From: Flectonema sp. DT1601
Lineage: Eukaryota
Assembly (NCBI GenBank): GCA_964019425.1
Contig: OZ025795.1
Location: 620,001 to 684,000 of the forward strand
Direction of reading: 5' to 3'
Length of the DNA stretch: 64,000 bases
This document shows positions 882 through 43,578 of the stretch, one piece after another (the stretch's first letter is position 1; each line of letters opens with the position of its first letter). The notes below the pieces were generated by a model. It ran no database searches, was not told the origin of the DNA, and saw only the letters and a list, made by a program, of their open reading frames with translations. The position numbers were made by a program, and so were the translations under genes.

Positions 882-1789
882 TTGCTGTTATCAAGTAGCC
901 AGAAAGAATAAATTTAGGGGAAGTAAAGGTGTCAATCAAGGTTGCGCTACTTCGTAGAAAAGTGTTCTGATAATCATCAGCACCCCCCGCCTGAAATTTA
1001 AGTGCGACTTCTGTATCTGTTTACTCAGATACTTTATTTTGAAAGAATGCGTAAGGCTAAGTAGAAAACAAGTGATCTATTTTTTTTTAGGACAACGGGT
1101 TTCCGATAGCGGAAGCCAAGCAATCCTGTGGGAGTTAGAAAGATTTGTATCTATGATGGGAAGAAACTTTTAGCAACTGTTTTAATTCTTATCGAGTCAG
1201 CCATCATTGATTCCTTCCTCTCTTCTTGTTTTGTGTTTTTGATTTCTCCGAGGAAAACTTTCCTTCACGAAAACCAGCTATTGATTTCCCTCAGCTGGGT
1301 CTCTATTTTTTGTTCCTTGGAAGAAGCTGTCGGAAGCACAAACGAGAGTTCTTTTTTTCATTCCGTTCGGTTTGGAGTGATTCTATTCAGATTTTCTTTT
1401 TATTATTTAATTTTTTTTCGTTTTTTTTCTGACCAGGTGCGATGAATAACCATGTTGTTGTTTTTGGGAGTGGATCTTTGCGGTTCTTTGCGGGGAATCT
1501 GTTTAGTACAAATGGAGTTCCGATGTTTTTTTATGGTTTCTGACAAGTTGACTCTCTCTCTCTTTCTCTTGTTGTTTTCCCTTCCCTTTTCATGCATGCT
1601 ACGACAACATACGCAAGAGGTGCTCAACTATGTTCAGATTCCAGCGGTATTTTTATTTTGCAATCGGTACCACGTTGCCGCTGACAGTGTGGGACGGTTC
1701 TTTAAGTTTTTCTTTCGGTGTGTAGACCTCAAAAAGAAGTATCAATTCCCCCTTCAGTTAACTCCTAACAAACTACATAAATAGTAAAA

Positions 1790-2632
1790 ATGGCAACTCT
1801 TAAGATCACAGCATCGCTTATCACTGGGTCTTTGATTGAAGTGGTTCCCACGTTCGAGAACAAGGTTCCAGGTAGTATTTACAGTTTCGATATTAGGTGC
1901 GTTGCGTACCCTGGAACTGTTGCAGGAGGTGATTTTGACTTCAACCCGACTACGGTCTTGGAGGGACAGACTGCTTTGTTGACGGAAGATTATGATAAAT
2001 TTCCATTTGTTGCTGGGGATTACGTTGTGACTTGCGAGTCCAATATTATAGAGATTGGATCTGGTGGTGCTAGTGGTCTTCATCCTATTGTTGGTGAACT
2101 TGGTGTTGTAGTTCCTGGTGCCCCTACTTGCGATTCTGGAGTGTCGAGCTCAGCGGCGGCCGTTACCATCACTCCTGTGGATATCGTTGACGGGGTGTTG
2201 GATGTTACTCACACGCGTTACACGCAGTTCCCTGACGTGATCTCGATGATGAAGGGATTCCCGTTCCCAAGAACAGTGGTCTCAGGAACCCAGGTACACC
2301 TGAAGTGCTGTGCCGGGGAAGAGTGTGCTTTCGCATTCGCCCTTTACAGATGTGAGGCATGCACCGGACCAAAGCCATTCGGAATGACCAAGAAGTTGTT
2401 GTTGGACAACTGGGACAGTGCCTCTTGCTCACCAAAATTCGATGCGGACTTCAGCACCACCCTCTTCTACAAGAACGTGCAGGGACCATATGAGAAGACC
2501 TTCGACCTCCAGCACGATGAGTTGTTTGTTGTTCTCATGAAGGACGGATCCCTTCCTGCTCCACTTTGTAGCAAGCCACATGGACCGTTCCCAACGGGAA
2601 CTAACTGCGGTGACCGATGCCCGACCCTCTAA
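1790..2632 (+). CDS. Cys-rich protein of unknown function, tandem copy 2 (280 aa)
   Basis: Same translation as 39..881. Preceded by the pyrimidine-rich acceptor TTCCCCCTTCAG (ends 1757). Confidence 0.85.
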   Translation: MATLKITASLITGSLIEVVPTFENKVPGSIYSFDIRCVAYPGTVAGGDFDFNPTTVLEGQTALLTEDYDKFPFVAGDYVVTCESNIIEIGSGGASGLHPIVGELGVVVPGAPTCDSGVSSSAAAVTITPVDIVDGVLDVTHTRYTQFPDVISMMKGFPFPRTVVSGTQVHLKCCAGEECAFAFALYRCEACTGPKPFGMTKKLLLDNWDSASCSPKFDADFSTTLFYKNVQGPYEKTFDLQHDELFVVLMKDGSLPAPLCSKPHGPFPTGTNCGDRCPTL

Positions 2633-14369: not shown

Positions 14370-16001
14370 ATGCAAGGCTGCATGGAGCTTCTGAAGCGTG
14401 CTACTAAAAGAGAGGAAGAGGCACAGGACAAGTTACTACATTATCGGTCACATTTTCCAGATGAAGTTGGAATGATTACAGCGATGAAATCAGAAATCGA
14501 CGAATTGAATTCTGAAAAGCAGGAGTATCGACTTCTGTTGAAGTATTTTTCTGATAAACAAACAATCGAACCATCAGTACCTGAAGCAGAGGGCTGTGTA
14601 GTAGTGCGGACATCCGATCAGAAAATGTTTTCGATTTCGAGAGCAGCAGCTGAAGAGCATTCAGGTTATTTCCGAGCGCTCTTTGAAACTGATTGTAAGG
14701 AAGTGGTATCAGGTGTTGTGGATTTGCAGATCATGTCGAGTGACTTTCAACATCTTTTTGATATGTTTACGTATCCTCCCTCGGCCATTGGAGGTCTCGT
14801 CGGGAAGAATCTGAGCTCCTACGAATTTGCAAAGCTGCTGTACAATGCGAAGTATTTTCAAATGACAAGTTGGATAATTCATCTGCTGCGTAATGTGAAC
14901 GAATGCTGTTCTTCTTCTTATGAAGAAAGTATCCGAGTTTGTGAAGTCTGTTCAGGACATCACATCTGTACCATTCCATGTCCGAGTTGTAGTAAACCAG
15001 TTTGTGTCGGATGTCGTGAAGTTTGTATTTTATGTCGGCTTTCACATTGTATAAACTGTTCTGATTGTAAAGGCTGGTGTTGGGGAACCGTATCAAAAGA
15101 ACCTGCTCTCTGTTTGGTTAGTGACTCGAAGTGCTTTTTTAGCGCCGTTTCATTTTCATTGGACTCTAAATACATCGCCACCGCCAACTACGACAACACA
15201 GCAAATGTGTGGAGTGTTGAAACAGGGCAGTTAGTTAAACGATTTAGAGGACACGACGATTACGTAATTTCTTGCAGCTTTTCTAATGATGGGAAATACA
15301 TAGTCACTGCGAGTTACGATAAAAGTGCTAGAATATGGTCTATAGAACAAAGTGATGTCGTAGTCTTAGAGGGGCATACGGCTTATGTCTATTGCGCCCG
15401 TTTTTCTGCTGACGATCAAAGTGTCGCAACATCGAGTTGCGATAAAACAATTAAGGTTTGGAACCCCGCAACTGGTGACTTACTCAAAACAATCGACAGC
15501 AATGGAAGTGGGATACGCAGCATTTGTTACTCCAGAGACGGAAAATACCTCGTCAGCGGGAGTGTTGATTTTTCTGTTAAAGTGTGGGATGCGAAAACTT
15601 ACGAACAGATATCTGTTTTCAAGGACCACTTGAACAGCGTCACAGGTGTCGCCTTCTCCAACGACTCGAAACTTCTTGCCAGCTGTAGTTCTGATAAGTC
15701 GATTCGAATATACGATTTGGGTGGTGAGGTAGCTGTGAAGATTCTAACAGGACACGCTGACGGAGTAAATAATATTTCGTTCTCTCCAGATGGTCGTTTC
15801 CTCGCCTCCGGAGGAAATGACAACATCAGAATCTGGGACCTCGACACCGGATCGGATGATTTGGTTATTAATATCCATACAAACCGTGTGAAAGATGTTT
15901 GCTTCTCAAGCGACGGCCGATACCTCGCCAGTGCCAGCTACGACAGTACGGTTCGAGTGTGGGGAGGTGGAGATAACGTTCTTGCAAAGACAGACAGTTA
16001 A
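14370..16001 (+). CDS. Coiled-coil + BTB/POZ-like + Cys-rich + WD40 repeat protein
   Basis: BTB-like SGYFRALF..AKYFQM, a CxxC cluster, and about seven WD40 repeats (GH..SxDxxxxxW). Confidence 0.88.
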   Translation: MQGCMELLKRATKREEEAQDKLLHYRSHFPDEVGMITAMKSEIDELNSEKQEYRLLLKYFSDKQTIEPSVPEAEGCVVVRTSDQKMFSISRAAAEEHSGYFRALFETDCKEVVSGVVDLQIMSSDFQHLFDMFTYPPSAIGGLVGKNLSSYEFAKLLYNAKYFQMTSWIIHLLRNVNECCSSSYEESIRVCEVCSGHHICTIPCPSCSKPVCVGCREVCILCRLSHCINCSDCKGWCWGTVSKEPALCLVSDSKCFFSAVSFSLDSKYIATANYDNTANVWSVETGQLVKRFRGHDDYVISCSFSNDGKYIVTASYDKSARIWSIEQSDVVVLEGHTAYVYCARFSADDQSVATSSCDKTIKVWNPATGDLLKTIDSNGSGIRSICYSRDGKYLVSGSVDFSVKVWDAKTYEQISVFKDHLNSVTGVAFSNDSKLLASCSSDKSIRIYDLGGEVAVKILTGHADGVNNISFSPDGRFLASGGNDNIRIWDLDTGSDDLVINIHTNRVKDVCFSSDGRYLASASYDSTVRVWGGGDNVLAKTDS

Positions 16002-27303: not shown

Positions 27304-30132
27304 TCAAGAATCAGTTGCCCATGATAACAAAGACTGAATGCAGATATCCATTTTATAAGAAGGGGTATTAGAAGGAAGGAATCGATGAACCATATCAATC
27401 AGGGATTTCTTAGTGTGGGTTTTCAGAATGTCGAGAGAACCAAGGGATTGCGTCACCCAAGATGCAAATGATGACCAAGTTCCATCACCGCAAGTGTTAT
27501 CAAAGGTGATTTGAACTGCTGCTAATCCGGTTCCAGTAGCAGCAGGAGAAGGAGCTGAGAAGGAAAGACCGACCTCAGCTTCTTCAAGTTGGCCGTTCGG
27601 CACGGTTGATGCAAAGTAAGATAAAGGGTTTTCCGTACTGTTTTTCCTAACCTGACGAAAGCCATTCATTCCGTAGTGACTGAGTCTCCGTTGAAGAATG
27701 CTGGGGCCATTCAAATGCTGCGTCCGTTGCTCCTCTGCTTCCGTCGCAGACACTGCACTCAACAAACCACCAGAACCAACTTCAATATCGTTCATGCTTA
27801 TTCCGTACTGCCCTACTTCCATTGGGGGTGGGACATCACCTCCCCCAGTCATTTTCATATTCTTAAATGTTATCTCTTCTAATCCTAATTCTTCTTTCTT
27901 CTGCTCGTGTTCTTTGATATCTGACATCGCCTTCTTGACGGCCTTCATAATTCGATCTTCTTCTGTTATTTCATCGCTCTGCTCAACCATGAAGACGTAA
28001 CGATGAAGATGATCTTTTGGACCAGCTTTAAAGTGATTCACACGAAGTGAGTCCATCATGCAGGGGAACAAAAGTTTCAACCTGCGTTCATACAACAGCG
28101 TAGCGCGCCCTTTTGAAAGTCTCCACTCCATTTCAGAGAGGGATCTGATCTCGCTGAAAGTACACGAGAAAATAGAAATCAAAAGATTCAATAAAATAAC
28201 TAATCCACAAATAGCTGCCAGCAGTGCCAATAAGTAAGAAAGCCACGCGAGATCTGCCTCTCCGGTTTGTGTCCACGTTGGAAATGAGGAGGTATCTCCC
28301 AGCGCAGTCTTAACCAGTTGATCCAACGATTGCGTGTAGGTATTCGGTGCCACCGCCATAATATGCAATGCCGTACCAAATCCGATTAAGAAAATCGAAA
28401 AAACGACTAAAAACGCCGTCACATCTGTACGAACAGTCCTGAAGACTATTGTCGTAAGCATACCCAACACTCGAGAGAATGCCGTGAATTTAAGAGTCGA
28501 CATCCAAACAAATAATTCCGCCACAGCGAGAATACCTGTCGTAAAAGAAGCTGGTTTCTTATCCTGAGCAAGGAATGTAACCACATGGATTATTGTAAGA
28601 ACTTGACCAATCCATGCGAAGAAATCATATTCAGATAAAGGAACATGGCTGGTTAACCAGGAAGTTCCAGATTCTCTGCTTTGCATAAAGTTGTCTGTGT
28701 TGACTATGCTGTTGAAAATATCTTCACCATGTTTTAGAGTAGCCAGCCAAGGTGGGATGGTTCCCTGTTTTCCTCGCAAACCGGTTTGGGCAACGGCTTC
28801 TGCATAACCAGCATAACAGTCCAACACAACAACAAAACATTGAAGTGCGCTATCTACAAAAACAATCCATTCAAGAGTTACGAGATCGCTATCGTCTGGA
28901 TTCTTATTTCCTTTTAAGATCTCATCAATATAATGTCGATATTCTATTGCGTGGTAAGTGATAGCAAACAATCTTAAAAGATGGATCACAAATGCGCTAA
29001 AAAATGCCAACGCGGCAAACTGATGCCACTTCGCTTCCATCACTCCCACCAGGTGCGGATGTGTTGAGAGAGAATAAAACCTTCTGCAACAAATTAAATT
29101 CAAAACACTAATTTGAGGAGTTTTCCCTGCGATTGGTATGGTATCCAACTGCTCCAGCGGAACGGAAGTGCAGCTGACACGACCGAATTTCCATTCAATA
29201 CGAGACATTCTATTTAATACGAAGTCAAATGTTTCTCCATTATCATTGTGACTTAGAACTGCTGCCAGACCAACTGGAGTCAGACCTGACGACCCCTTGG
29301 CTTCAAATGCAGCTTTTCTGTCCAATATTGTGATGTTGTGCTCTTCGGCACTTCGACCATACATATCTCCATTAACTTCCTCATCTTTATACAAAACATC
29401 CATTTGATCAAGTAACCAATCAAACAGTTCTGGTCGTCTGTGAATCACTGAGATGTGCAAAGCTGTGTTTCCGAATGTGTCAATTCGGCTGAGAATTGTG
29501 TTCGGGTTTCGGCCTTCTATTTTTGCCTTGTTCCGAACTCGTGTCAGTAGAAGCTGTGCCATTTTCTGATTTCCACATGCGACAGCGAACGACAATGGAT
29601 ATTCACCGAAATAACATGTCGAAGAAGGGTTGAAAAACGTACCATACGCGCGTGTGGTTGGATCTGCTCCAGCATCAATTAGAATCTCCATCAATTCACA
29701 ATCATCGAAGGCTACAGCGAGGTGAAGAGCAGACTCACCGTCAAAGAGACCAACTGGAAGAGTTGGGTCAGAGTAGCAGCAATTTATCAACTCTGACCTA
29801 TGAGGATACTCAGAGAGCAAGTAATCGACAATTGCCGACGCCCTGATATTCTTAAAAACTCCTCTGTGAATAACTGCCCAGTGAAGCAGACATGCTCCTA
29901 CATTGTCTCTAACAAATGTAGTTGATCGAACATCAACGAGATCACGTTTTCTTTCAATTAATTTCTTCAGGCAATCGACTGCTCCCTCTGGATCAAGATC
30001 GGAAGCTCTGAAGATATCCATCACGCCTTGGTCTTCCCAAAATGTAACCTGCTGTCCCATTGCTGAAGCAACAAACCGATTCCCCAGCAGTTCCTCACGA
30101 CACCCAAACATCTTCGCCATGTCCTCCATCAT
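27304..30132 (-). CDS. TRPV-like ankyrin-repeat cation channel
   Basis: Ankyrin repeats with TRPV-type GESALHLAV, YFGEYPLSFAVAC and GNTALHISV. Six-TM region, S6 LLNLLISIFS and TRP-box-like EWRLSKG. Confidence 0.9.
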   Translation of the reverse strand: MMEDMAKMFGCREELLGNRFVASAMGQQVTFWEDQGVMDIFRASDLDPEGAVDCLKKLIERKRDLVDVRSTTFVRDNVGACLLHWAVIHRGVFKNIRASAIVDYLLSEYPHRSELINCCYSDPTLPVGLFDGESALHLAVAFDDCELMEILIDAGADPTTRAYGTFFNPSSTCYFGEYPLSFAVACGNQKMAQLLLTRVRNKAKIEGRNPNTILSRIDTFGNTALHISVIHRRPELFDWLLDQMDVLYKDEEVNGDMYGRSAEEHNITILDRKAAFEAKGSSGLTPVGLAAVLSHNDNGETFDFVLNRMSRIEWKFGRVSCTSVPLEQLDTIPIAGKTPQISVLNLICCRRFYSLSTHPHLVGVMEAKWHQFAALAFFSAFVIHLLRLFAITYHAIEYRHYIDEILKGNKNPDDSDLVTLEWIVFVDSALQCFVVVLDCYAGYAEAVAQTGLRGKQGTIPPWLATLKHGEDIFNSIVNTDNFMQSRESGTSWLTSHVPLSEYDFFAWIGQVLTIIHVVTFLAQDKKPASFTTGILAVAELFVWMSTLKFTAFSRVLGMLTTIVFRTVRTDVTAFLVVFSIFLIGFGTALHIMAVAPNTYTQSLDQLVKTALGDTSSFPTWTQTGEADLAWLSYLLALLAAICGLVILLNLLISIFSCTFSEIRSLSEMEWRLSKGRATLLYERRLKLLFPCMMDSLRVNHFKAGPKDHLHRYVFMVEQSDEITEEDRIMKAVKKAMSDIKEHEQKKEELGLEEITFKNMKMTGGGDVPPPMEVGQYGISMNDIEVGSGGLLSAVSATEAEEQRTQHLNGPSILQRRLSHYGMNGFRQVRKNSTENPLSYFASTVPNGQLEEAEVGLSFSAPSPAATGTGLAAVQITFDNTCGDGTWSSFASWVTQSLGSLDILKTHTKKSLIDMVHRFLPSNTPSYKMDICIQSLLSWATDS

Positions 30133-31805
30133 GCTTGTGGTTGTGTATTTTCACTCCCCCCAATGGGGAGAAGATTCCTGAGAAATAATTAAACCACTCA
30201 CTCACTAGTCTTCAATTAAACTAACAACTATTCTATGAATTAATCATCTGCAGAAAAAAAAGATTTTAATAATAAAAGAGAACGATTTGAAAAAGTACAA
30301 AACCGTATTACGAGGTTGCACGCGTATCCGTACCTTTTCTTAATTCCAATCTAGCATGAACGTTGGGTGTTTCTTTTGTAAAGCCGCTTGAACCGTTTCC
30401 TCCCTGCATATTGGGAAATGTGTTATTCTCCAATTTGCAGTTTCTGATTTCGTAGATGCTGTTACCTAGACTCGTCTACAAGACGCGAGAAGTTTTGCAT
30501 CAACGTCGTATTTAGGAAGCATTGACGGCTAACGCAAATGCCAAGCGTTCGGTTGGGACTGCAACGTGATTTCGAGGGCTAATGGGTGATGACGTTTTTG
30601 TTTTTTATTTTACTCTTTTTATTTCTTTTTTTTTTTTTAAATATTTTAAGTAGTCATTGAGCTTGTTTGCTCCCTCGCCATACGTTTCATGTGCAAAAAT
30701 CCAAATTATTCTTTTTTTTTTATTTTATTTTTTTTTACCAATTTTTTTTTTCGTTTTCTTCGCTTCGCCAATTCTTCACTTAAATGGGTCAAAAGACTTA
30801 AGGTGCTCATTGGCTAACTTTGCTGTCTTTGCCCGATTCTGTTAATTACTACGGAGGGAGTATGGAGAGGAAGATTGGTCAGAATAGAGAATCAGTTCAA
30901 TTCCGCGTGAAGAGGTTGCAAACAAAATTAGTTCTGCTTCGTTGCAAAAGAGTTTCTCCACTGCAGCTTACTGATTCTCACTCTAGCGTTCTTTACCGGC
31001 GAGGCATTCATTTGAACCGCAGTATCTGAAAATTAATAAAGTGGGACGGAAGTCAACTGTAGTGACAAGACCCACCGGGTTTTGAGCAACGTTGATATTC
31101 CAACACGTGAACACTTTGAGGGAAGTACCTGCAAGTAATCGCAACGTGGGTACTAATGGCATAAAAGCCCGTAGTAGAATTCTGCAAGGAAAGTGATTCG
31201 TGCCTCCAACTATATTTCTATTTTTTATTGATATCACTCCTGTATATGTATATATTTTTTCCTCCTTCAAATAAATAAATAAAGAGTTCCCTCTGAACTT
31301 CACCGACACGGAGGTTTGCACCTGCAGGCCATGAAATTTCGTTCACACAGTGCACGACACAAAGGAAAGAGTGCACTGCAGAGGGAGGTAAGAACGGAAG
31401 ACAGTTCAAATGCAACGCACTAGCAACAGTGGATTCAGTTATGTGATAGGAAATTTAAAACAGAGAAGAACGGGATACGGGGGTACGCGTGGGAATGGAA
31501 CGGGGATCGGATTGTTCTTTTGTAACTACACGACAACAACCAGTTGCTCTCCTGGGTGTGAAAGCAACTGCCTTGAGTGAACTACCCTGGCTGGCATGTG
31601 TTCGGGTAGTAACTGGGGAAGGGACGAGAACACGTTTTTTTAATTATCTTTTCTTCCAAAGAATAACTCTCTTTTTTTTTATTTAATATTTTGTATTTTC
31701 TATTCTTCATTCCATCTCGGAACTGGATGCCTGAAATGCCCTCCAGAGCAAGTCTTCTGATGATCAATTCACTTTTTGGATGGTCGACTTCGGTCACTTT
31801 CTCGC

Positions 31806-33180: not shown

Positions 33181-33826
33181 TTATCTTCTGTCAGGACAGT
33201 CTCTGGACATGTGACCTGGTTTGCCACAGTTGTAGCAGTCTCTGCCTCCTCCACCACCACCACCACCTCCTCCACGACGGTCTGGGCAGTCTCTTGACAT
33301 GTGACCTGGTTTGCCACAGTTGTAGCAGTCACCACCTCCGCCTCCACCACCCCCTCCACGACGGTCTGGGCAGTCTCTGGACATGTGACCTGGTCTGCCA
33401 CAGTTGTAGCAGTCACCACCTCCGCCTCCACCACCTCCTCCACGACGGTCTGGGCAGTCTCTGGACATGTGTCCTGGCTTGCCACAGTTGTAGCAGTCAC
33501 CACCTCCACCACCACCTCCTCCACGACGGTCTGGACAGTCTCTTGACATGTGTCCTGGTTTGCCACAGTTGTAGCAGTCACCACCTCCACCACCACCTCC
33601 TCCACGACGGTCTGGACAGTCTCTGTGTTATTGTTTTAGTAGTAAGGCCGTCGATATCAAATTTCGGTCAATAGCTATATAACCAAAAGACATACCTTGA
33701 CATGTGACCAGGCTTGCCGCAGTTGTAGCAGTCTCTGCCTCCTCCACCACCACCACCTTCTCCACCCTGTGGGCAGTCACGGGCAATGTGACCCTCTTCG
33801 TTACACTTGTAGCAGGCGCGGGACAT
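33181..33826 (-). CDS. Seven-CCHC zinc-knuckle nucleic-acid-binding protein (CNBP/UMSBP/HEXBP-like), 2 exons, 190 aa
   Basis: Exons 33826-33696 and 33622-33181, intron 33695-33623 (GTATGT..ACACAG). Seven CxxCxxxGHxxxxC motifs with poly-Gly/RRGG linkers. Confidence 0.93.
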
Positions 33827-34556: not shown

Positions 34557-36191
34557 CTACAGAATAACAACTTCGGGTTTTGATCTTGTTCTCCTACTAG
34601 AAGGTTTACGTCGCTTAGGATTATCTGACAAGGCATCGATGTCAATAACTTCTTTGACTTCGTTAGTTGTCTGAGTGTCGGATTTTGATCTTTTTACGTG
34701 ACTGCGTTGAGTGCTGAAAAACTGAGTGGGTGAGGCGAAATCAGATTGTGGAAAGTCGTCGTCATTTTGACTGCTAAGAGAACTGCGAAAGAGTTCAGTT
34801 TCTTCGAAGTTTATCTCTTTTGAAGTGTGAATATCATCATCATCATCATCATCATCGATGATTAAAGTTTCAACAGGTTTCTTCTTTATCTTTACCCGCT
34901 TGTCATCAGTACTAAGAAATCGATCTAAAGTAATAACTCCTCGTTTCTCCTCCTCATCTTTGTACTTTAAGTGTAATGCAACACCAACTCCTCGAATTTG
35001 ATCAACTTGCCCCGTAAACGAATGAAAAACCTTAATAGCCGTCTCAGCTATTCCTAGTCTGTAAGGGCTGCTGCTTACCCAGGGGGTTACTAGACCATGT
35101 CCGAATCTTTTTGAGGGTAGAGGTGCATCCTTAGCTCGAATAAGTAATTTTAAAGTTACCTTTTGTGGCGTCGGATTGGATTCAATACATGTGAGCGCTT
35201 GGTGTACTTGAGTGCTGACGTCTTTAATTATTGAGTCGACGTCTTTCCTTTCAGTCGGTCGGACAGCCCAGTTCAGGTTACGGGATATCGACTGCGGCTT
35301 CTGTTCCAGAAAAGCAGCAGCTCCAAATTGAATATCTGAAGCTTCTTGTCCAGCAGCCATGGCCAACAGCTTGCGAGCTAGAACGCTGCCAATCACTTTT
35401 TGAAGAGTTTTTTCATCAGTTTGGCTGATGTGTTGACATTTTGTTATTTTCATAGCAGTGAGCTTTTTCTCCATAACTCGGCCAACTCCTGTTAAACTGC
35501 GAACTGGTAAGTCCAGTAATGAATGTAGTTGGTGGATACCAGTCCCTGGAGGCTTTGCAAATTGCGTCGATTGCCGCGCCATAATACTTGACAACCCAAT
35601 TCCAATTGATACCGGGCACTTAGTTTTGGTCAGAATAGCTTGCCTCAAGATCTTAGCGGATTCAAATACATTTTTAGAATATCTTTTCGGTACTTTCATA
35701 AGTAGCTCATCACATGAGAGAGGATAGACGTCAGTGCTGTATTGGAGAAACACTTTATACATCTCTCTCGTCAACTCGTTAAGTAATTTAAACATTTCAG
35801 GGGATACTCTCACAATTGATAAGGTTGGGCATTGTGCACGAGCCTTACTCAAAAGCATTCCTTTTTTTATTCCAAACCTGCGGGCTTCATATGAAGCTGT
35901 GCAGATGTCTGAATAATTATCTCCTCCGCTAGTCACTGCGATTGGTATGTTGTGCAGTTCTGGATTAGAAACTCTCGCCGCAGAGACGAAAAAGCAATCG
36001 ACGTCGATGTGTAGAACAAAGTTATTGTCTGGATCGCTCTCGTCCTCAATCGCTCTGAGCTCTGCTTCGAGGACTGGATCCAGAAGTTGATTACTCAGTT
36101 CGGTAGAAACTATTTCTCGAAGTCGTGTTTTCCAGGTACCCAGAAAGCTCAAGCGGCTGGTTTCCGCATAGCTCGCTGCCCTGCTGGTCAT
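34557..36191 (-). CDS. REV1: Y-family DNA polymerase, REV1-like deoxycytidyl transferase
   Basis: REV1 N-digit SRLSFLGTWK, HIDVDCFFVS, SYEARRFGI, SCDE, AKP.G, GVG and K-x-x-GHG in the little finger. Confidence 0.85.
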   Translation of the reverse strand: MTSRAASYAETSRLSFLGTWKTRLREIVSTELSNQLLDPVLEAELRAIEDESDPDNNFVLHIDVDCFFVSAARVSNPELHNIPIAVTSGGDNYSDICTASYEARRFGIKKGMLLSKARAQCPTLSIVRVSPEMFKLLNELTREMYKVFLQYSTDVYPLSCDELLMKVPKRYSKNVFESAKILRQAILTKTKCPVSIGIGLSSIMARQSTQFAKPPGTGIHQLHSLLDLPVRSLTGVGRVMEKKLTAMKITKCQHISQTDEKTLQKVIGSVLARKLLAMAAGQEASDIQFGAAAFLEQKPQSISRNLNWAVRPTERKDVDSIIKDVSTQVHQALTCIESNPTPQKVTLKLLIRAKDAPLPSKRFGHGLVTPWVSSSPYRLGIAETAIKVFHSFTGQVDQIRGVGVALHLKYKDEEEKRGVITLDRFLSTDDKRVKIKKKPVETLIIDDDDDDDDIHTSKEINFEETELFRSSLSSQNDDDFPQSDFASPTQFFSTQRSHVKRSKSDTQTTNEVKEVIDIDALSDNPKRRKPSSRRTRSKPEVVIL

Positions 36192-36785
36192 TCTACCTGA
36201 GAAATGAGTTAATTTTTATCCGTTTTTTTTTGGATAGAAAATATACCACTTTTCTCTCCGACAGAATTAACAGGATCGATTATAGTGTTGCTGTTAAAAA
36301 ATGTTATTATTTCTACAGCTAAATTATTTAACCACTCCCAAAATAGCATAAATGTGTAAATGGTTAAAAGTACTTAAGCCAGGCAGCATTTACTAACACT
36401 TTGTTAGGAAGTTGAGGAAGAATGCCACAAAAAGTTGTCTTATTGCTGACCACGGATAAAAACGAGTCAATAAACAGAACGGGAAAATGAATTGCAGATA
36501 AAAACAAAGCGACTAATATGATGTGTATGGAATATGGTTTACCATACAAAATTGCGCTCACAAACCATCTCAGAAAAGATTGTTGTGCTGTACCTCACAT
36601 GCAGTATGTTGGGGCTGAAATAATTCAGATTTGGGAGAGGAAACAAAATCCGAAATGGCCCTATGCCGTAAGGATAAAGCGATCTAATCAAAACAAGAAG
36701 TAGACAAAGAATAGGGGGGTAGATACACGTGTTTACACAGTTGAAGGGTGACTCCGCGGAAGCGAATCGAAAACGACAAGAAAGA

Positions 36786-39700
36786 TCAATCCGAGAAGTT
36801 ATCGTCTTCAATCGAAAGAACTCTTATTCGAGATGGGTCACTATCTCTGTGACTGGTTTGTGAAGAAGCGTCACTCTCTCTGCGCTTGCGGGAGATATTT
36901 TTTTTTGCTTCTCTGGCAGCAAAAGACTCCACGTCGAAGGTGAAAATTTCGAACCCGAAACGTTCATAGCGAATGGTTCGAAAGAACTTACAAAAAGGAA
37001 CCAAGTTTGGATCGTCACCAATTCCATAAAACAGATCATCAAATTCATCACTTGAATCAGAAGTTGTTATCAAACAATTAATTTCAACTGAGTCAGCGTA
37101 TGATGCGAGTACTGTTGCTAATCCAACAATCACTCCCAAGGCAGACGAAAACCTCAACTCAGCCATTCCCGCATTCGGGATTGTTTCCAAGATACCAGTT
37201 GCTATGGCCATTGAACCAAACCTCCCGCTAACAAGTCCTCCTATGTAACTAAAAATACTACCGGCACATGAAGAGACATTACAAATATGATCATCACCCT
37301 TAAAGCCGATTACTATTATTCGACTGCAGGCGGTTATAACAACACCCTGGTTTTCAGCTGCCAAGTCACCAGAAAATATTATCGTCTCTTCGATCAACTT
37401 TTGCGTACAATTCGCTGCAACTTTGATCACTAGAACCGACGCTGATTGTGTCCTCTGAGCCGAAATATGCGACCTCCTAGAAACTATTTCTTCGGTATTT
37501 TCTTCTGATGAGCAGACTGAGGTGTCTGATGGGGGTAGTAATATTTGCACTTTATAAGGTAAGCACCACGATCTCTTGGCCAAAGAAGGGTGCGAGACTG
37601 CATAAGCAACCACTTTACCAATTCCCTTCAGAGGGATATCAGTAACTTCGAAAATCGAATAAAGTTTTCCCTCATCTGATAAGTGTAACTCCACGCTAGC
37701 GTTGAGAGATATCAAAATGATTCCTCCTTCACCAGCTGAGGTGAGTCTTGCCGCTAGATTTGCTGTTTTTCCCAAATAATCACTTCTACCTGTCAAGGCG
37801 TTGCTTTCAATCACTGCTGCGCCATAAGCAATTCCGACAGCCATTCGAAGTCCTTTCCAAACCATTTCCCCGTTTTCAACGATTTCTTCAAGTCCATCTC
37901 TCTCAAGTAGTTTACGAGGCCAGTCCGCCCAAAGTAGTGCGCTTTGACTGTCGCAGTAGCACTTAACTGCATCGGTTACCTGTATTTACTTTATTTCACA
38001 AATCGTTGTGTTTCCTTAATCTACAACAGGTGGAATACTTACAATAACACAGTAAGATATGAGAATTGTTGTGGTCATATTAAAGTTCACATACCTCTTG
38101 AAAGACACACATCAGTCTATCTCCGACAGTTTTCACTTCGTATCCGTGAAACTTTTCGTAGAACGAGCGAACTACAGAAAAGTACGTTGTAACCGCCTGA
38201 GCCATTACCTCTGGATGCTCAAGCCAAAGGCTCTCTGAATCAGAGATGCTCGTGAAACTGATGGCAACGGTGCTTTCAGGTGCGGTGCGGAGTAGTTTCC
38301 TTTGAGCAGCGAAGGAGGCGGCGGCTGTCAGGTCAGGGAGGTAAGAACGAAAGTGTTCAAGTTTGGATCGAAATCTGTAGAACGATAGCAACAACTTTCG
38401 TTCATCTTCGCTCTCTTTTCCGTTTTCGATAAACAGTTCGAAAGACTGTACAAACCTATCAACTCTCGAAAGGTTGGTATCGAGAGTCAACTTAGATAAT
38501 ACTCGACTGACTACCATTGCAACTTGTCTTTGACGAGTCAGCTCCGGAAGAACAATAACATCATCATCTGTGTAGCTGCATTTGTTTTCAATTTCCGACT
38601 CCCGAGGAATTCGAAGCTTGTTTCCCGACTGCGGCCTCACCGTTGCCAACAACTTCCCTGCACCCTTCGATAATATCCAGGTCCACCCGCAGATCCAAAT
38701 AATGATGACAACAATTCCCAACAATTGAACTAAAAACTGAACAATATTACCACTATAAAATAAACCTCCCCTTGCAAACTTCCTTTTAGGGTATGTCCTT
38801 CGAACGCGTTTCTGATCAGCAAACAGTGTTGCTGCCAGACTTCCCAGTAAACCACCGCCACCATGAATCAGAATTGTATTGCAAGTGTCGTCAATTCGAA
38901 GAATCAACAGAATTTGCTTCCCTTTTAAGTACCCAATAGCACAAATAATCCCAACAGGAACTGAATAGGCAGGGTGTATCAGTCCAGCGAAACCACTGAT
39001 AGTAGAAACAGCACACAATATGACAGAACTGCAATCACGCGCACTTGCGTACCCGAACATCAGAATTCCGTAGAACATAAAAATAGCTACAGCTGCTGAA
39101 GGACCAAGCAAAAAGCATATCAGCGCCTCAGCAACTGATTCGTTATTTGAGAGCATACTACATGACAGAGCTGTGTACGCAGGCCAAGAGAGGAATGCAG
39201 CAGCACCAGATAAGAGCGGATCGGTTCCTTGCAGTTTACGTCGTCCCTCAGCAGAAAAAGGATCAATTTCTTCGAGTCCATCATTTGTAAATACAATACG
39301 AGGGCCAATCAGGAGAGTTACAATAAGAGAAGAGAATCCAGAGACTATGTGGATAGCTGTTCCCGATGCAGGGCCGAGGTAACCCGTGTTGTCGATACGT
39401 TGAAGCCAGGTATCGTGTGATGATACCCAATGATCTACTGCAGGGACAGGGAACAGTGTGAGGGCGAAAACAATGAAGAAGTGAACATCCCGGCGAATGG
39501 TAGTCCCGACACCGCTTCCAAGCAATCCTCCAACAAGAATGAGAGCAGTTATGCTGATAGAGTACTCTGACTCTTCTGAAAAGGTTACGGGGTCGATAGG
39601 ATTTCGCATTCCTACAAAAGCCCCGTTGCCGGCAGCTATTGTGAACCCAACAAGAACCCACGAAATCCCAAAAGCTGCAATCGATTGAACATATCGAATA

Positions 39701-41632
39701 AAAACCCTACTAATGAAGCATCGCCTTACGCAACCAGCTTCAAACAAAAAGTGAGAACACAAAATTGTCAATCCCATGACATGACTAAAGGGCACCCAAA
39801 ACATTTTTCTTTCAAGTATCTTTGTTGAGTTTCGCATGTGCTGGTCGAGACCGATTGCTATGTCTTTAACATCTTGCACCTGATATAATCCAGGGATAGC
39901 TAGAAAAGAAGTGAACAGGACCACGACAATACCTTTCATAAGAATTGTCATTTTGACTTTCTTCCGACTGAGTATATCTCGTATATCTCCTCCAGACTGC
40001 TCCTGAATATCCCAAACTTCTAAAGGAAAGTCCCTTTGCGAGCGTTGTGAGCGGTTGTCGCTGAAACCAGAGCTCACTCTCTTTTTCTGAGAGACTAATC
40101 GCTGTTTCTTAACTTTAATACTTGAATCCATAGAAGCGGAATCGTTTACCGAACAGTTTTGCGAACTAGAAGGGGTGAAGCTTTGGACATCTACATTCAA
40201 AATATTTATTGCTTTTAATTTTGAGATCTTACGATCATCCGCAAGTGCTTTGCTGGAAGTGGTGCTAGTTGCTCTCTGAATAACTGAAAGCCTATCAGAG
40301 ATGTCATCATTGTCTTGATCAATACAAACTATTTCAAAAGTTCCATGATCAGCTGCATCAAGACCAAGTTGTTCATCGTGATATGAAACTCGTAATTTAT
40401 TAAACTTCTTGAGGGTAAACCCAAGTGCTGAAGTCCAAAACATAGACCACCCGGTCAGTGTAGCCAAACCGAGTAATTGAATACCAATTTGTTGTGCTCC
40501 ACCACCTAAGAACAACCCGAAGGACTTTTCAGACTTGACTAAATTCCTCTCAGCAAAAAGCCCAACAGAAATAACACCTATTAAACCTCCTCCCGTATGA
40601 GTTGAGAATGCGTTCACCACGTCATCAATGTGATACTTAATACGAATTTTTGTAAGCAGTCGGTAGACAGCAGGGGTCACTATCCCCATCACGAGTCCAT
40701 AACGCGGTCTCACAACGGTGCAGCAACCAGAAGAGCCGGCAAGTGACGTTATCAGGATAGGGCTCACTGTTTGAAGGTCAATAAACCCCCGTGTTAACTT
40801 ACAATAAATAGCCTCCGTTATCAGAGCTGCTGAACTTGTCGTTAACGTTAAGAGACCTGTTGTCGTTTATTTGTTTTAAAAAGTAATGTTTCTTACTGAT
40901 CACAAGAATGTAATGAAGTTAAATAAACAAACCTGAGTTAATAACTCCAACAAGATCCAAAGCAGAACCCATATTAAAAGCTATCCAACCAGTGAAGAGA
41001 AATATAACACCGAGGGTCGAGAACACATTGTCTTGCACTTTAAGAGCTTTGTATCCCTCGGCTGAGAAAGCGTCGGCGCCGTCTGCTATCTTACGAGGGC
41101 CCAGAATGGCTGTAATTGTGACGGCAATCATTCCTCCAACGTAGTGAATGATTCCTCCACCTGCACTGTCAATGAATCCATTGTCACCAATGCTTGATAA
41201 CCATCCTCGTGATATCCAATGAAGAGGAACAGGATAAATAATAATTGCGATTAAAACGACCAACAAGTAGTAGGCTTTCAAACGAATTCGTTCCGTAACT
41301 GCTCCGCTTGCTATTGTCACGCAAGTCGACGCATAAGCGCTTGATTGATAGAATCTATATTTCTGGAATAGAGAAGTCCCGGACAGAGTGAAGTACTCCG
41401 TTCCAATGAAATCACCTGTTGACTTTCCGTAAGAAAAACCATATCCAACTAACCACCAAATAACTCCAACCAGACAGCAGTCGCCAATGTTCTTGAACAT
41501 TACTGAGATGGAATTTTTTCTCCTAACCGTCCCGTGTTCCAATAATAAGAATCCGACTTGCATAATGAACACTGTGATTCCCGTGACTGCCACCCACAAC
41601 ATTTCTGTATCCCTCCCGTCATCTTCATGCAT
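36786..41632 (-). CDS. Tandem ammonium transporter (Amt-Amt) fused to class III adenylate cyclase and a degenerate cyclase domain, 3 exons, ~1551 aa
   Basis: Exons 41632-40933, 40856-38095 and 37979-36786. GT-AG introns 40932-40857 and 38094-37980 join three ORFs in frame. Amt motifs GFLLLEHG..RRKN, SGAVTER, DSAGGGIIH, GWIAFN, IDD..H, LRV..E..GLD, with a second degenerate set. Cyclase motifs YEVKTVGD, WKGLRMAVG and DYLGKTANLAAR. Confidence 0.9.
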
Positions 41633-42894
41633 CACCTGAGAAGATTATAATTACAAAAAGTATTTCCCGTCTGGCAACAGTACTTCATCAGAATAAATTA
41701 AACTTCCGGGAGAAGAGTAATAAAATACAAATCACAGGCACTAACTACTATTAAAAATGATTTTTTTTTATCTACATATCAGCCAGCTAGCCAGCTAGCT
41801 AGCACATATCGAGACTTCCGCCATCAAGCGGCGTCTAAGTATTTTTTGGTTGTCGCAACAAGATCACAACTCTCAAAAAACAGTTTTTAAATACGAAGGT
41901 TACTCGTCTGTTGACGGGAGCACCTAATTCAACCCAGTCGCTGACAACAGCATTGAGTCTTTATTTTTAACGAGAGATTCTCGTCGCGCAAGTTAATGCT
42001 GAACTGGTCAACATCTTTTGAAGTGAAATAACTAACTCCAGTCTCGATGGAGTGTAAAAACAGTACAAAACACGAATTCCAGCACTCGTAAAGAATCTAG
42101 GGCATGCCCACAATTCGGAGGCCAGAGGGATGGCTGAATAACAATATAAACTGATTTGTGACCCATTTCCCAAAACTCAAAAGAAAAAGAAAGAACTGGG
42201 TCACTTACCAAGACAGAAGAAACGAAACTAAAAACAAAAATAAATACAATAATGAGAATGGAATTCTTATAAGGATTGTCTTTATTAAAACATGACACGC
42301 TTTACATTTCATTTTGTTTGAATGAAAGTCGAAGACATCTCGCTATCATTCCCTGTTGAATACTTCAATTAAGTAGTTTCGAGTATGAAGGTGTCACTCA
42401 CATCATCAAATGGAGTGCACTACTGATAACGTTGTAGAACTGTACTTCAAGAAATAGAATCAATAAGAGAAATTTCCTCACTGATTTGATTCTGATGAGT
42501 CACATCAACATTATCAATAGACTTCTCTATGCGTTAATAGTTGCAGTTCATAATATTGAACTGCATTGAAACGGACCGAATCGCAATCAGTTAAAACAAC
42601 ACAACTGATTTCTACCCAAGTTTTCAACCCACTAAGGGTCATGGTTTACAACAACAATGAAAATTGTATTGAGAAATAAAAAAAAATAAAATAAAAAAAT
42701 AATGAATTGCAATTCCTTGGAATGTATTCCTTTTATTGCAACTCTTTTGATAAACAAATAGATTGCATTGACGGTCTGTCTCACAGATGAGAAAACAATC
42801 TTCTTCATTCACAGTCGCCGATTAATAAATGTGTGATCACACCCTCTGGTAGGTATCTAAACTTATCAAGCAAGAACAGCAATAATTAAACAAC

Positions 42895-43578
42895 TTAATT
42901 AGAAGGACGTGTGTTAAATGTATCTATGACTTCAGATTGTCGGCGATTCTGAGTAGCTGGAACAGCAGACCTAGGAACAGATTCCCGGCGATTCTGAGCA
43001 GCTGAAACAGCAGACCCGGGAACAGATTGCCGACGAGCTGGAACAACAGACTCGGGTACAGATTGCCGGCGAGCCGGAACAGCAGACTCGGGAAAAGATT
43101 GTCGGCGATTCTGAGTTGCTGGAACACCAGAATCGGGAGCAGTGGGCGGCGTTGGAGGAAATTGCGGTAGCGCTGGTTGCATTAGGTCACCTGGTTGAAA
43201 ACCTTCCGGCTGTTGCTCCCCAACAGCTGAAGGATAAAACACGGGGGGCCTTTCTAAACGTTCTCTCGATGAATTGTACAATGCCATGGCTTCAGTATCA
43301 TTTTTCGCCTTTTCGTAATTAATAGCGTGAGGGCAATTTTCTTCATCATAAATTTGAACCTTTTTAACATCAAGTTCCTCAGGTATCGGAGACACGCTAA
43401 TGAAACGAGTCGTTTTATTGCAGACCAGCGGCTCTTGAAACTTCCTCATCACTGCCAGTTTACGTTCTGTTTTCTGTTTCGGCTTCCAGTAGAAATGATA
43501 CGCAGCAGAACAACCAGCGAGAACTAACACTAGAACGCTGACACCCACAACTATTAAGAAAATAGTTCCGTCAGTCAT
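42895..43578 (-). CDS. Single-pass membrane protein with tandem RRxS repeats in the tail
   Basis: N-terminal TM IFLIVVGVSVLVLVLAGCSAAY, Pro-rich region, five RRQS/RRES units. Acceptor CTCTCTCCCTCTAG at 43588. Confidence 0.82.
   Translation of the reverse strand: MTDGTIFLIVVGVSVLVLVLAGCSAAYHFYWKPKQKTERKLAVMRKFQEPLVCNKTTRFISVSPIPEELDVKKVQIYDEENCPHAINYEKAKNDTEAMALYNSSRERLERPPVFYPSAVGEQQPEGFQPGDLMQPALPQFPPTPPTAPDSGVPATQNRRQSFPESAVPARRQSVPESVVPARRQSVPGSAVSAAQNRRESVPRSAVPATQNRRQSEVIDTFNTRPSN

Follow-up and report, generated by a model that had tools for sequence, protein, structure and literature searches.

A tandem-Amt protein with a half-site class III cyclase in Flectonema sp. DT1601, a candidate sensing subunit of a hetero-oligomeric ammonium receptor

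We analysed a stretch of 64,000 nucleotides from Flectonema sp. DT1601 (GenBank assembly GCA_964019425.1, contig OZ025795.1, positions 620,001 to 684,000), called the window hereafter and numbered from its first letter, with attention to a minus-strand gene that joins two ammonium transporter (Amt) domains to two nucleotide cyclase folds. The gene has three exons (41632-40933, 40856-38095 and 37979-36786), and the joined frame encodes 1551 residues with a single terminal stop. The predicted protein contains, in this order, Amt1, a serine-rich linker, a transmembrane helix, Amt2, a set of helices, cyclase 1 and a dead cyclase 2; about 23 transmembrane helices are predicted, and there is no ectodomain. 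The features of the gene are given below together with comparisons to its best relative, P0005.

40933..41632, minus strand: exon 1, residues 1-233, the N-terminal half of Amt1, carrying every N1/N2 ligand
40333..41614, minus strand: Amt1, residues 7-408, split by intron 1; sensor-type, N1/N2 ligands 6/6, His163/His320, Ser141 for the outer-vestibule Trp
40857..40932, minus strand: predicted intron 1, 76 nucleotides, GT-AG, GC content 0.25; P0005 is contiguous there
38095..40856, minus strand: exon 2, residues 234-1154, with the remainder of Amt1, the linker, the transmembrane helix, Amt2, the helical linker and the start of the cyclase
39952..40332, minus strand: serine-rich linker, residues 409-535, predicted disordered; 12% identity with the orthologue P0005
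39895..39951, minus strand: extra hydrophobic helix, residues 536-554, between Amt1 and Amt2
38587..39813, minus strand: Amt2, residues 582-990, degenerate, N1/N2 ligands 1/6, both His of the pair present, conserved Asp gone; 42% identity to P0005
38332..38553, minus strand: three predicted helices of low confidence, residues 1002-1068, and a family-wide Y-L-P motif, preceding the cyclase
37602..38283, minus strand: cyclase domain 1, residues 1092-1280, split by intron 2; half of the catalytic residues retained
37980..38094, minus strand: predicted intron 2, 115 nucleotides, GT-AG, GC content 0.30; insertion in P0005 at the same point
36786..37979, minus strand: exon 3, residues 1155-1551 and the stop, an open reading frame
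36924..37457, minus strand: cyclase domain 2, residues 1329-1506; class III fold without catalytic motifs

Comparison with P0005 (E 2.4e-172; 1573 residues) confirmed that the gene model and the domain order are real and conserved. The two proteins align from end to end with 35.5% identity over 1587 columns; P0005 reads through junction 1 without a break and carries, exactly at junction 2, an insertion of 23 residues that looks like a retained in-frame intron. Both splice sites are supported, since a full-length orthologue aligns across them, and homology argues for the splicing of the three exons into one mRNA, so that the model of the initial annotation (three open reading frames, two GT-AG introns, 1551 residues) was upheld. 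Of the GT..AG pairs that keep the frame (14 candidates for intron 1, 29 for intron 2), the shortest was chosen in each case, and both introns are poorer in GC than the exons (0.43-0.44). Exon 2 sits inside an open frame of 928 codons, compared with 171 for the longest stop-free run in 500 shuffles. A Pfam check found both expected domains: Ammonium_transp matches exon 1 once (E 3.5e-44) and exon 2 at two places (7e-55), while Guanylate_cyc matches exon 2 (1e-8) and exon 3 (1.3e-7). The initial annotation had placed both Amt domains and the cyclase start in one exon, which is correct for Amt2 and the cyclase start, while of Amt1 only the C-terminal half lies in that exon, exon 2. A chance or assembly fusion was ruled out by the 928-codon frame, by P0005 and by transcript-derived relatives, and a third Amt upstream of the gene was rejected, no such open reading frame being present. 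Three bases before the start ATG, and in frame with it, lies an AG (41636-41637, minus strand) that may accept a spliced leader or close another intron; the N-terminus of P0005 is longer by about 12 residues. Six spliced-leader-like motifs gave short chance matches only.

The two Amt domains differ sharply in their ligand residues. Amt1, whose best PDB matches with exon 1 as query are Sd-Amt1 (E 9.5e-33) and Ks-Amt5 (E 7.2e-28), has the six N1/N2 ligands (a set defined in PMC11152129) Q25, E32, N48, D51, T106 and S109, the switch residues K47 and Y121, D155 and the His pair H163/H320; the inner Phe/Ser are retained, and Tyr100/Phe219 occupy the gate positions. The Amt that adjoins the cyclase is the degenerate Amt2, and the intact Amt1 is distant from the effector. 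Among 23 distinct tandem proteins, the N1/N2 set is intact in both repeats in 12, in the second repeat (B) only in nine and in neither in none; the two with an intact first repeat (A) only are the window protein and P0005. A transducer is fused C-terminally, as in the ammonium receptor (AmR) class, the class III cyclase sharing an exon with Amt2. Of the canonical assimilatory set (outer Trp/Ser, Phe pair, His pair), Amt1 has the His pair and lacks the complete set. Amt1 looks like a sensor-type Amt, and we describe the protein as AmR-like, with predicted ammonium binding, and do not assign it to the AmR class.

A different reading of these residues is that Amt1 is a working transporter or a transceptor, or a sensor of pH or of a different small amine, the cyclase tail being regulatory or vestigial for ammonium signalling. 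The retained His pair, D155 and inner Phe/Ser would suit such a function, as would the loss of the outer Trp and the occurrence of the N1/N2 set in real transporters. The family, however, repeatedly fuses such Amts to cyclases, kinases and cyclic nucleotide monophosphate (cNMP) modules, and both characterised fused Amts bind and do not transport (PMC11152129, PMC5764959). We consider this reading very unlikely.

The extra helix at residues 536-554 bears on how the two Amt domains are arranged. The N- and C-termini of Amt proteins lie on opposite sides of the membrane (PMC11152129); the helix would restore an N-out topology for Amt2. By a home-made rule, 16 of 23 tandem proteins show a signal-peptidase-like site in the helix between Amt1 and Amt2, versus 112 of 675 control Amt helices, and this helix looks like the retained signal peptide of a duplicated gene; it is signal-peptide-like in most tandem relatives, but not in the window protein. 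This excess of sites would also fit a polyprotein or alternative trans-splicing, by which free Amt1 and an Amt2-cyclase chain would mix into trimers with effector-less subunits, as would the similar segment with which the single-Amt proteins P0044 and P0091 begin and the presence of Met537 and Met540 before the signal-like segment in the window protein. Such a split product is highly improbable in our judgement: the window protein and P0005 both fail the rule, and the linker is open in frame in all tandem proteins, among them complete transcript open reading frames in Artemidia and Namystynia.

The architecture was searched among relatives in a sample of 254 sequences, the window model included, drawn mainly from the best 150 of 3396 and the best 120 of 172 matches. 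Two Amt domains were found in 25 of them (23 without two isoforms) and three in none. A class III cyclase is present in 11 of these 25, of which three are complete transcript open reading frames from Artemidia; seven of the 11 are catalytically complete, two are of the half type described below and two have losses on both sides. The other tandem proteins end in a protein kinase (three: P0012, P0016, P0022), in cNMP-binding or ion-channel modules (five distinct, of about 2500-2800 residues: P0011, P0013, P0014/P0154, P0015, P0020), in a dead cyclase alone (P0008/P0032) or in no detected effector (two). In the channel- and kinase-fused diplonemid tandems the N1/N2 set is intact in both repeats. 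All named tandem relatives are diplonemid (Artemidia, Namystynia, Hemistasia under the source prefix Hpha, and Diplonema ambulator). Cyclases with a single Amt are known from D. papillatum, D. japonicum, Artemidia, Lacrimia and a green alga (P0059, Mesostigma viride), and the metagenome protein P0142 is of this kind too. Cyanobacteria carry Amt-PAS-cyclase proteins, and P0056 is an Amt fused to a PP2C phosphatase. In an Amt tree of 50 of 67 rows, the A and B repeats of one subfamily pair repeatedly (99/96, 99/99, 99/96, 100/99), which points to repeated tandem duplication or to homogenisation between repeats. A metagenome scan gave 80 loci; 79 of 477 long open reading frames had an Amt, with no case of two Amt domains or of an Amt with a cyclase; a viral scan found no relatives, the ESM Atlas gave matches below 0.9 only, and word-based searches with exon 2 and with P0005, insensitive enough to miss known relatives, returned four proteins each.

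Catalytic residues of class III cyclases are divided by role into those for metal, phosphate, substrate and transition state. Cyclase 1 has as its nearest solved structures GRESAG4.1/4.3 (1fx2, 1fx4; E 4.5e-11 and 1.6e-8 for two exon pieces), so that its initial description as a trypanosomatid-type cyclase was borne out. In the GRESAG4 alignment Ser1103 takes the place of the first metal Asp. Ala1201 stands for the phosphate Arg and Glu for the loop Thr; the corresponding three residues of P0005 are Cys, Ser and Asp. The second metal Asp (D1146) is retained, with K1142, D1221, N1228, R1232 and K1272, and both proteins, 49% identical in cyclase 1, keep the K, D, N, R and K/R. The domain shows the class III fold with the adenine Lys/Asp and transition-state Asn/Arg (K1142, D1221, N1228, R1232) and one of the two metal-binding Asp. 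Guanylate specificity was also considered and is ruled out by the Lys/Asp pair. In class III cyclases the metal residues come from one half (C1) and the substrate and specificity residues from the other (C2) (PMC6027212). With its metal and phosphate residues lost and its substrate residues retained, cyclase 1 would therefore be a substrate-side half; and since both orthologues lack the first metal Asp as well as the phosphate Arg, it should be inactive without a partner. The direct, one-protein output from NH4+ to cyclic AMP (cAMP) proposed in the initial annotation is not supported, given the loss of these two residues and of the loop Thr and the degeneration of the Amt attached to the cyclase.

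Cyclase 2 (residues 1329-1506) has no Pfam match and was recognised as a class III fold by HHalign (probability 92.9%, E 3.7e-7) and by structure with VIA-align (Z 16.8, root-mean-square deviation 3.4 over 157 residues), in agreement with its earlier description as a degenerate cyclase. The metal-Asp motifs are missing from it in 17 aligned rows, and a dead cyclase 2 cannot complement cyclase 1 within the chain. The model of exon 3 (predicted template-modelling score 0.49) contains only half of cyclase 1 and is therefore uninformative on the packing of cyclase 1 against cyclase 2. These data bear on the explanation that the protein is a self-sufficient, ammonium-gated adenylate cyclase, acting as a homo-oligomer or through an intramolecular pair of cyclase 1 and cyclase 2 with non-canonical metal ligands. 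D1146 is present, the acidic D1106 and E1108 are nearby, two cyclase folds stand in tandem and seven of the 11 tandem-cyclase relatives are complete; but D1106 and E1108 are out of line with the canonical Asp in the GRESAG4 alignment, the phosphate Arg and the loop Thr are gone as well, and cyclase 2 offers no metal-Asp motif. Self-sufficiency therefore appears improbable.

The residues lost from cyclase 1 are those kept by certain single-Amt cyclases. P0040/P0156 (Diplonema japonicum) and P0043 keep the D, D, R and Thr and have lost the N, R and K, and their Amt domains are degenerate, with 2 and 4 of the 6 N1/N2 ligands. Under random loss, the hand-computed odds are 3 in 28 for two losses confined to the three-residue set, and 10 in 56 for three losses and 5 in 70 for four losses confined to the five-residue set. 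The pattern is suggestive and no proof. In the Amt tree the complementary singles group with the window repeats (ultrafast bootstrap 81 / SH-like approximate likelihood ratio test 95), as they do in three of three leave-out trees (91, 91, 82). Twice in Artemidia, too, a tandem and a single protein of matching cyclase class are paired: P0006 and P0044 group at 100/95 in the Amt tree, and P0007/P0009 group with P0025 at 100/100 in the cytoplasmic tree. The cyclase class shared by P0006 and P0044 is a different one, located after the dead domain; P0044 has His for the transition-state Arg, and the two form a second candidate 2+1 pair.

The missing metal residues could also mean that the protein is a catalytically dead pseudo-cyclase receptor, which may sense ammonium and signal by scaffolding, or by dimerising with active paralogues and so inhibiting them, with no share in catalysis. 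Neither orthologue has the first metal Asp, cyclase 2 is fully dead, and the family has other dead members, namely P0026, P0058 and P0085, besides P0008/P0032 with a dead domain alone. Against this, the five substrate and transition-state positions are kept or conservatively changed in orthologues just 49% identical, whereas P0026, P0058 and P0085 have lost residues of both catalytic sets; the existence of complementary half-site singles also speaks against it. We regard a pseudo-cyclase as rather unlikely.

We favour, at about even odds (a probability of roughly 0.5), the reading that the window protein does the sensing within a hetero-oligomeric ammonium receptor adenylate cyclase, whose output of cAMP would depend on a partner contributing the metal-binding residues. 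In the mechanism proposed, ammonium would move past the His pair in Amt1 and reach the N1/N2 pocket, the degenerate Amt2 would serve as a structural subunit of the trimer, and the resulting change would cross the trimer from Amt1, which bears no effector itself, to the neighbouring Amt subunits. Inter-subunit coupling via the C-termini and loop 5 has been discussed for Amts (PMC5764959). In response, the C-terminal helices that follow Amt2 would shift a cyclase heterodimer with one working active site, and the dead cyclase 2 may be a dimerisation or regulatory module. The most economical partner would be a single-Amt cyclase such as P0040 or P0043, so that the complex would hold 2+1 Amt domains and cyclase chains to the number of exactly two; alternatively, a complete paralogous cyclase could take this role.

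Several observations weigh against the hetero-oligomer. The partner chain in the window organism is postulated; no orthologue of the window gene was found in D. japonicum, the named source of a complementary single, although one of the searches behind this was so insensitive that it missed the window's own protein. The clade uniting the singles with the window repeats is unstarred and marked by long branches and a shared biased composition, the cytoplasmic tree gives the same grouping only 81/62, and no such clade is recovered in the rooted cyclase-1 tree. The seven complete cyclases among the 11 tandems indicate that a tandem Amt needs no split catalysis, and it is not obvious how the tandems with channel-like modules would follow a two-effector rule. 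On the sensor side, Amt1 misses the literal AmR signature QX6EX15NX2D[F/T]X54-60TX2[S/T] twice (Cys52 for F/T and a spacer of 53 residues) and lacks the outer Trp, Ser141 standing there in a pairwise PDB alignment. The N1/N2 set is not diagnostic, being carried by 139 of the 179 single Amt domains examined, and plant transporters fall in the same cluster as N1/N2-bearing Amts (PMC11152129).

A wider proposal is put forward only tentatively, and we think it more doubtful: that obligate 2+1 heterotrimers of tandem and single chains solve the mismatch of three against two in diplonemids, that in the subfamily of the window protein sensing (by Amt1), the substrate half (carried by Amt2) and the metal half (on a degenerate single) are fully divided, and that tandem Amts arose several times independently and were wired to cyclases, kinases and cNMP-channel modules as an undescribed eukaryotic receptor family. 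Since a 2+1 trimer holds two cyclase chains, the symmetry break between trimer and dimer would be removed. If this is true, the coupling of a trimeric sensor to a dimeric enzyme becomes open to a simple two-gene cAMP read-out, and the diplonemids gain a candidate receptor for nitrogen or prey cues; no known ligands were found for the many cyclases of these marine protists. D. papillatum has a single-Amt member, which makes the family testable in the model species of the group.

Elsewhere in the window, most long open reading frames up to position 16001 are on the plus strand, and from 20966 onwards most are on the minus strand. This layout fits the unidirectional gene clusters of Diplonema papillatum, a species that also has GT-AG introns (PMC10161547); a diplonemid source of the gene is likely. 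The other features are the following.

30-881 and 1781-2632, plus strand: two open reading frames of 283 residues each, without Pfam match, possibly tandem duplicates
27304-30150, minus strand: gene for an ankyrin-repeat and polycystin-type cation channel
33181-33627, minus strand: downstream neighbour, a Gly-linked CCHC zinc-knuckle protein (Pfam)
34557-36215, minus strand: downstream neighbour, a Y-family (IMS) DNA polymerase (Pfam); no functional link is implied for either neighbour
42895-43578, minus strand: upstream neighbour of 227 residues, with a hydrophobic helix at the N-terminus and short repeats at the C-terminus, without Pfam match

Soluble guanylate cyclase, with its alpha and beta chains, has complementary half-site domains. 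If the hetero-oligomer is right, the halves of the window system would sit on separate Amt-bearing chains, and the second domain within the chain is dead. In this it differs from the C1/C2 domains of mammalian membrane adenylate cyclases, which it would resemble in having catalytic residues split over two complementary half-sites (PMC6027212). The trypanosomatid GRESAG4.1/4.3 have the closest solved cyclase domains and the adenine-type Lys/Asp, and differ in having one transmembrane helix, a Venus-flytrap ectodomain and one complete homodimeric domain (PMC6027212). Instead of the single transmembrane helix and Venus-flytrap ectodomain of receptor adenylate cyclases, the window protein has two Amt domains.

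Two fused ammonium receptors, both bacterial, are characterised in the papers cited here (PMC11152129, PMC5764959). Sd-Amt1 of Shewanella denitrificans (8qj3/8qj4/8qpf; PMC11152129) has the N1/N2 ligands, the Lys/Tyr switch and the His pair in common with Amt1 and, like the window protein, a helical linker to a C-terminal dimeric nucleotide cyclase and the same mismatch of trimer and dimer. Unlike the window protein, it is a bacterial homotrimer with one Amt per chain and an intact enzyme, a HAMP and GGDEF diguanylate cyclase; the window protein has two Amt domains, the sensor-type one far from the effector, and a half-site class III cyclase followed by a dead copy. Ks-Amt5 of Kuenenia (6eu6; PMC5764959) similarly places a sensor-type Amt on a dimer-dependent effector, and differs in its histidine kinase output, its single Amt and its bacterial origin. 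The initial annotation took bacterial Amt sensors to be established with histidine kinase, diguanylate cyclase and adenylate cyclase outputs; the first two stand, and for the third the word 'adenylate' does not occur in the main text of PMC11152129, nor 'cyclase' in the accessible part of PMC5764959. The symmetry problem that it raised does apply here and had already been stated in both papers, which leave open how a trimer drives a dimeric enzyme; PMC11152129 resolves the symmetry break by leaving one of three domains idle.

No description of a tandem Amt or of a eukaryotic Amt-cyclase was found in the openly available literature, judged mostly from titles and the starts of abstracts. The claim that none had been described holds to that extent, and the gene is not unique, being one of a diplonemid family. 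Figure 7B of PMC11152129 lists eukaryotic domain organisations, where such fusions may appear as Pfam labels; the accessible part of PMC7719234 mentions neither ammonium nor 'diplonem', and those of PMC10161547 and its supplement do not mention ammonium and give cyclase orthogroups without architecture. We place the window protein neither in the AmR class nor among the receptor adenylate cyclases, though it would work like an ammonium receptor, and its assembly is so far a model. Its closest counterparts are the uncharacterised diplonemid proteins, such as EP01065_Artemidia_motanka_P029497 (P0007, EukProt) and KAJ9448406.1 (P0019, Diplonema papillatum), which are built from the same modules: one or two Amt domains, helices, the Y-L-P motif, a cyclase and a dead cyclase. 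Most of these relatives have a complete cyclase with an intact Amt beside it, and the combination of an intact A repeat, a degenerate B repeat and a half-site cyclase is present only in the window protein and P0005.

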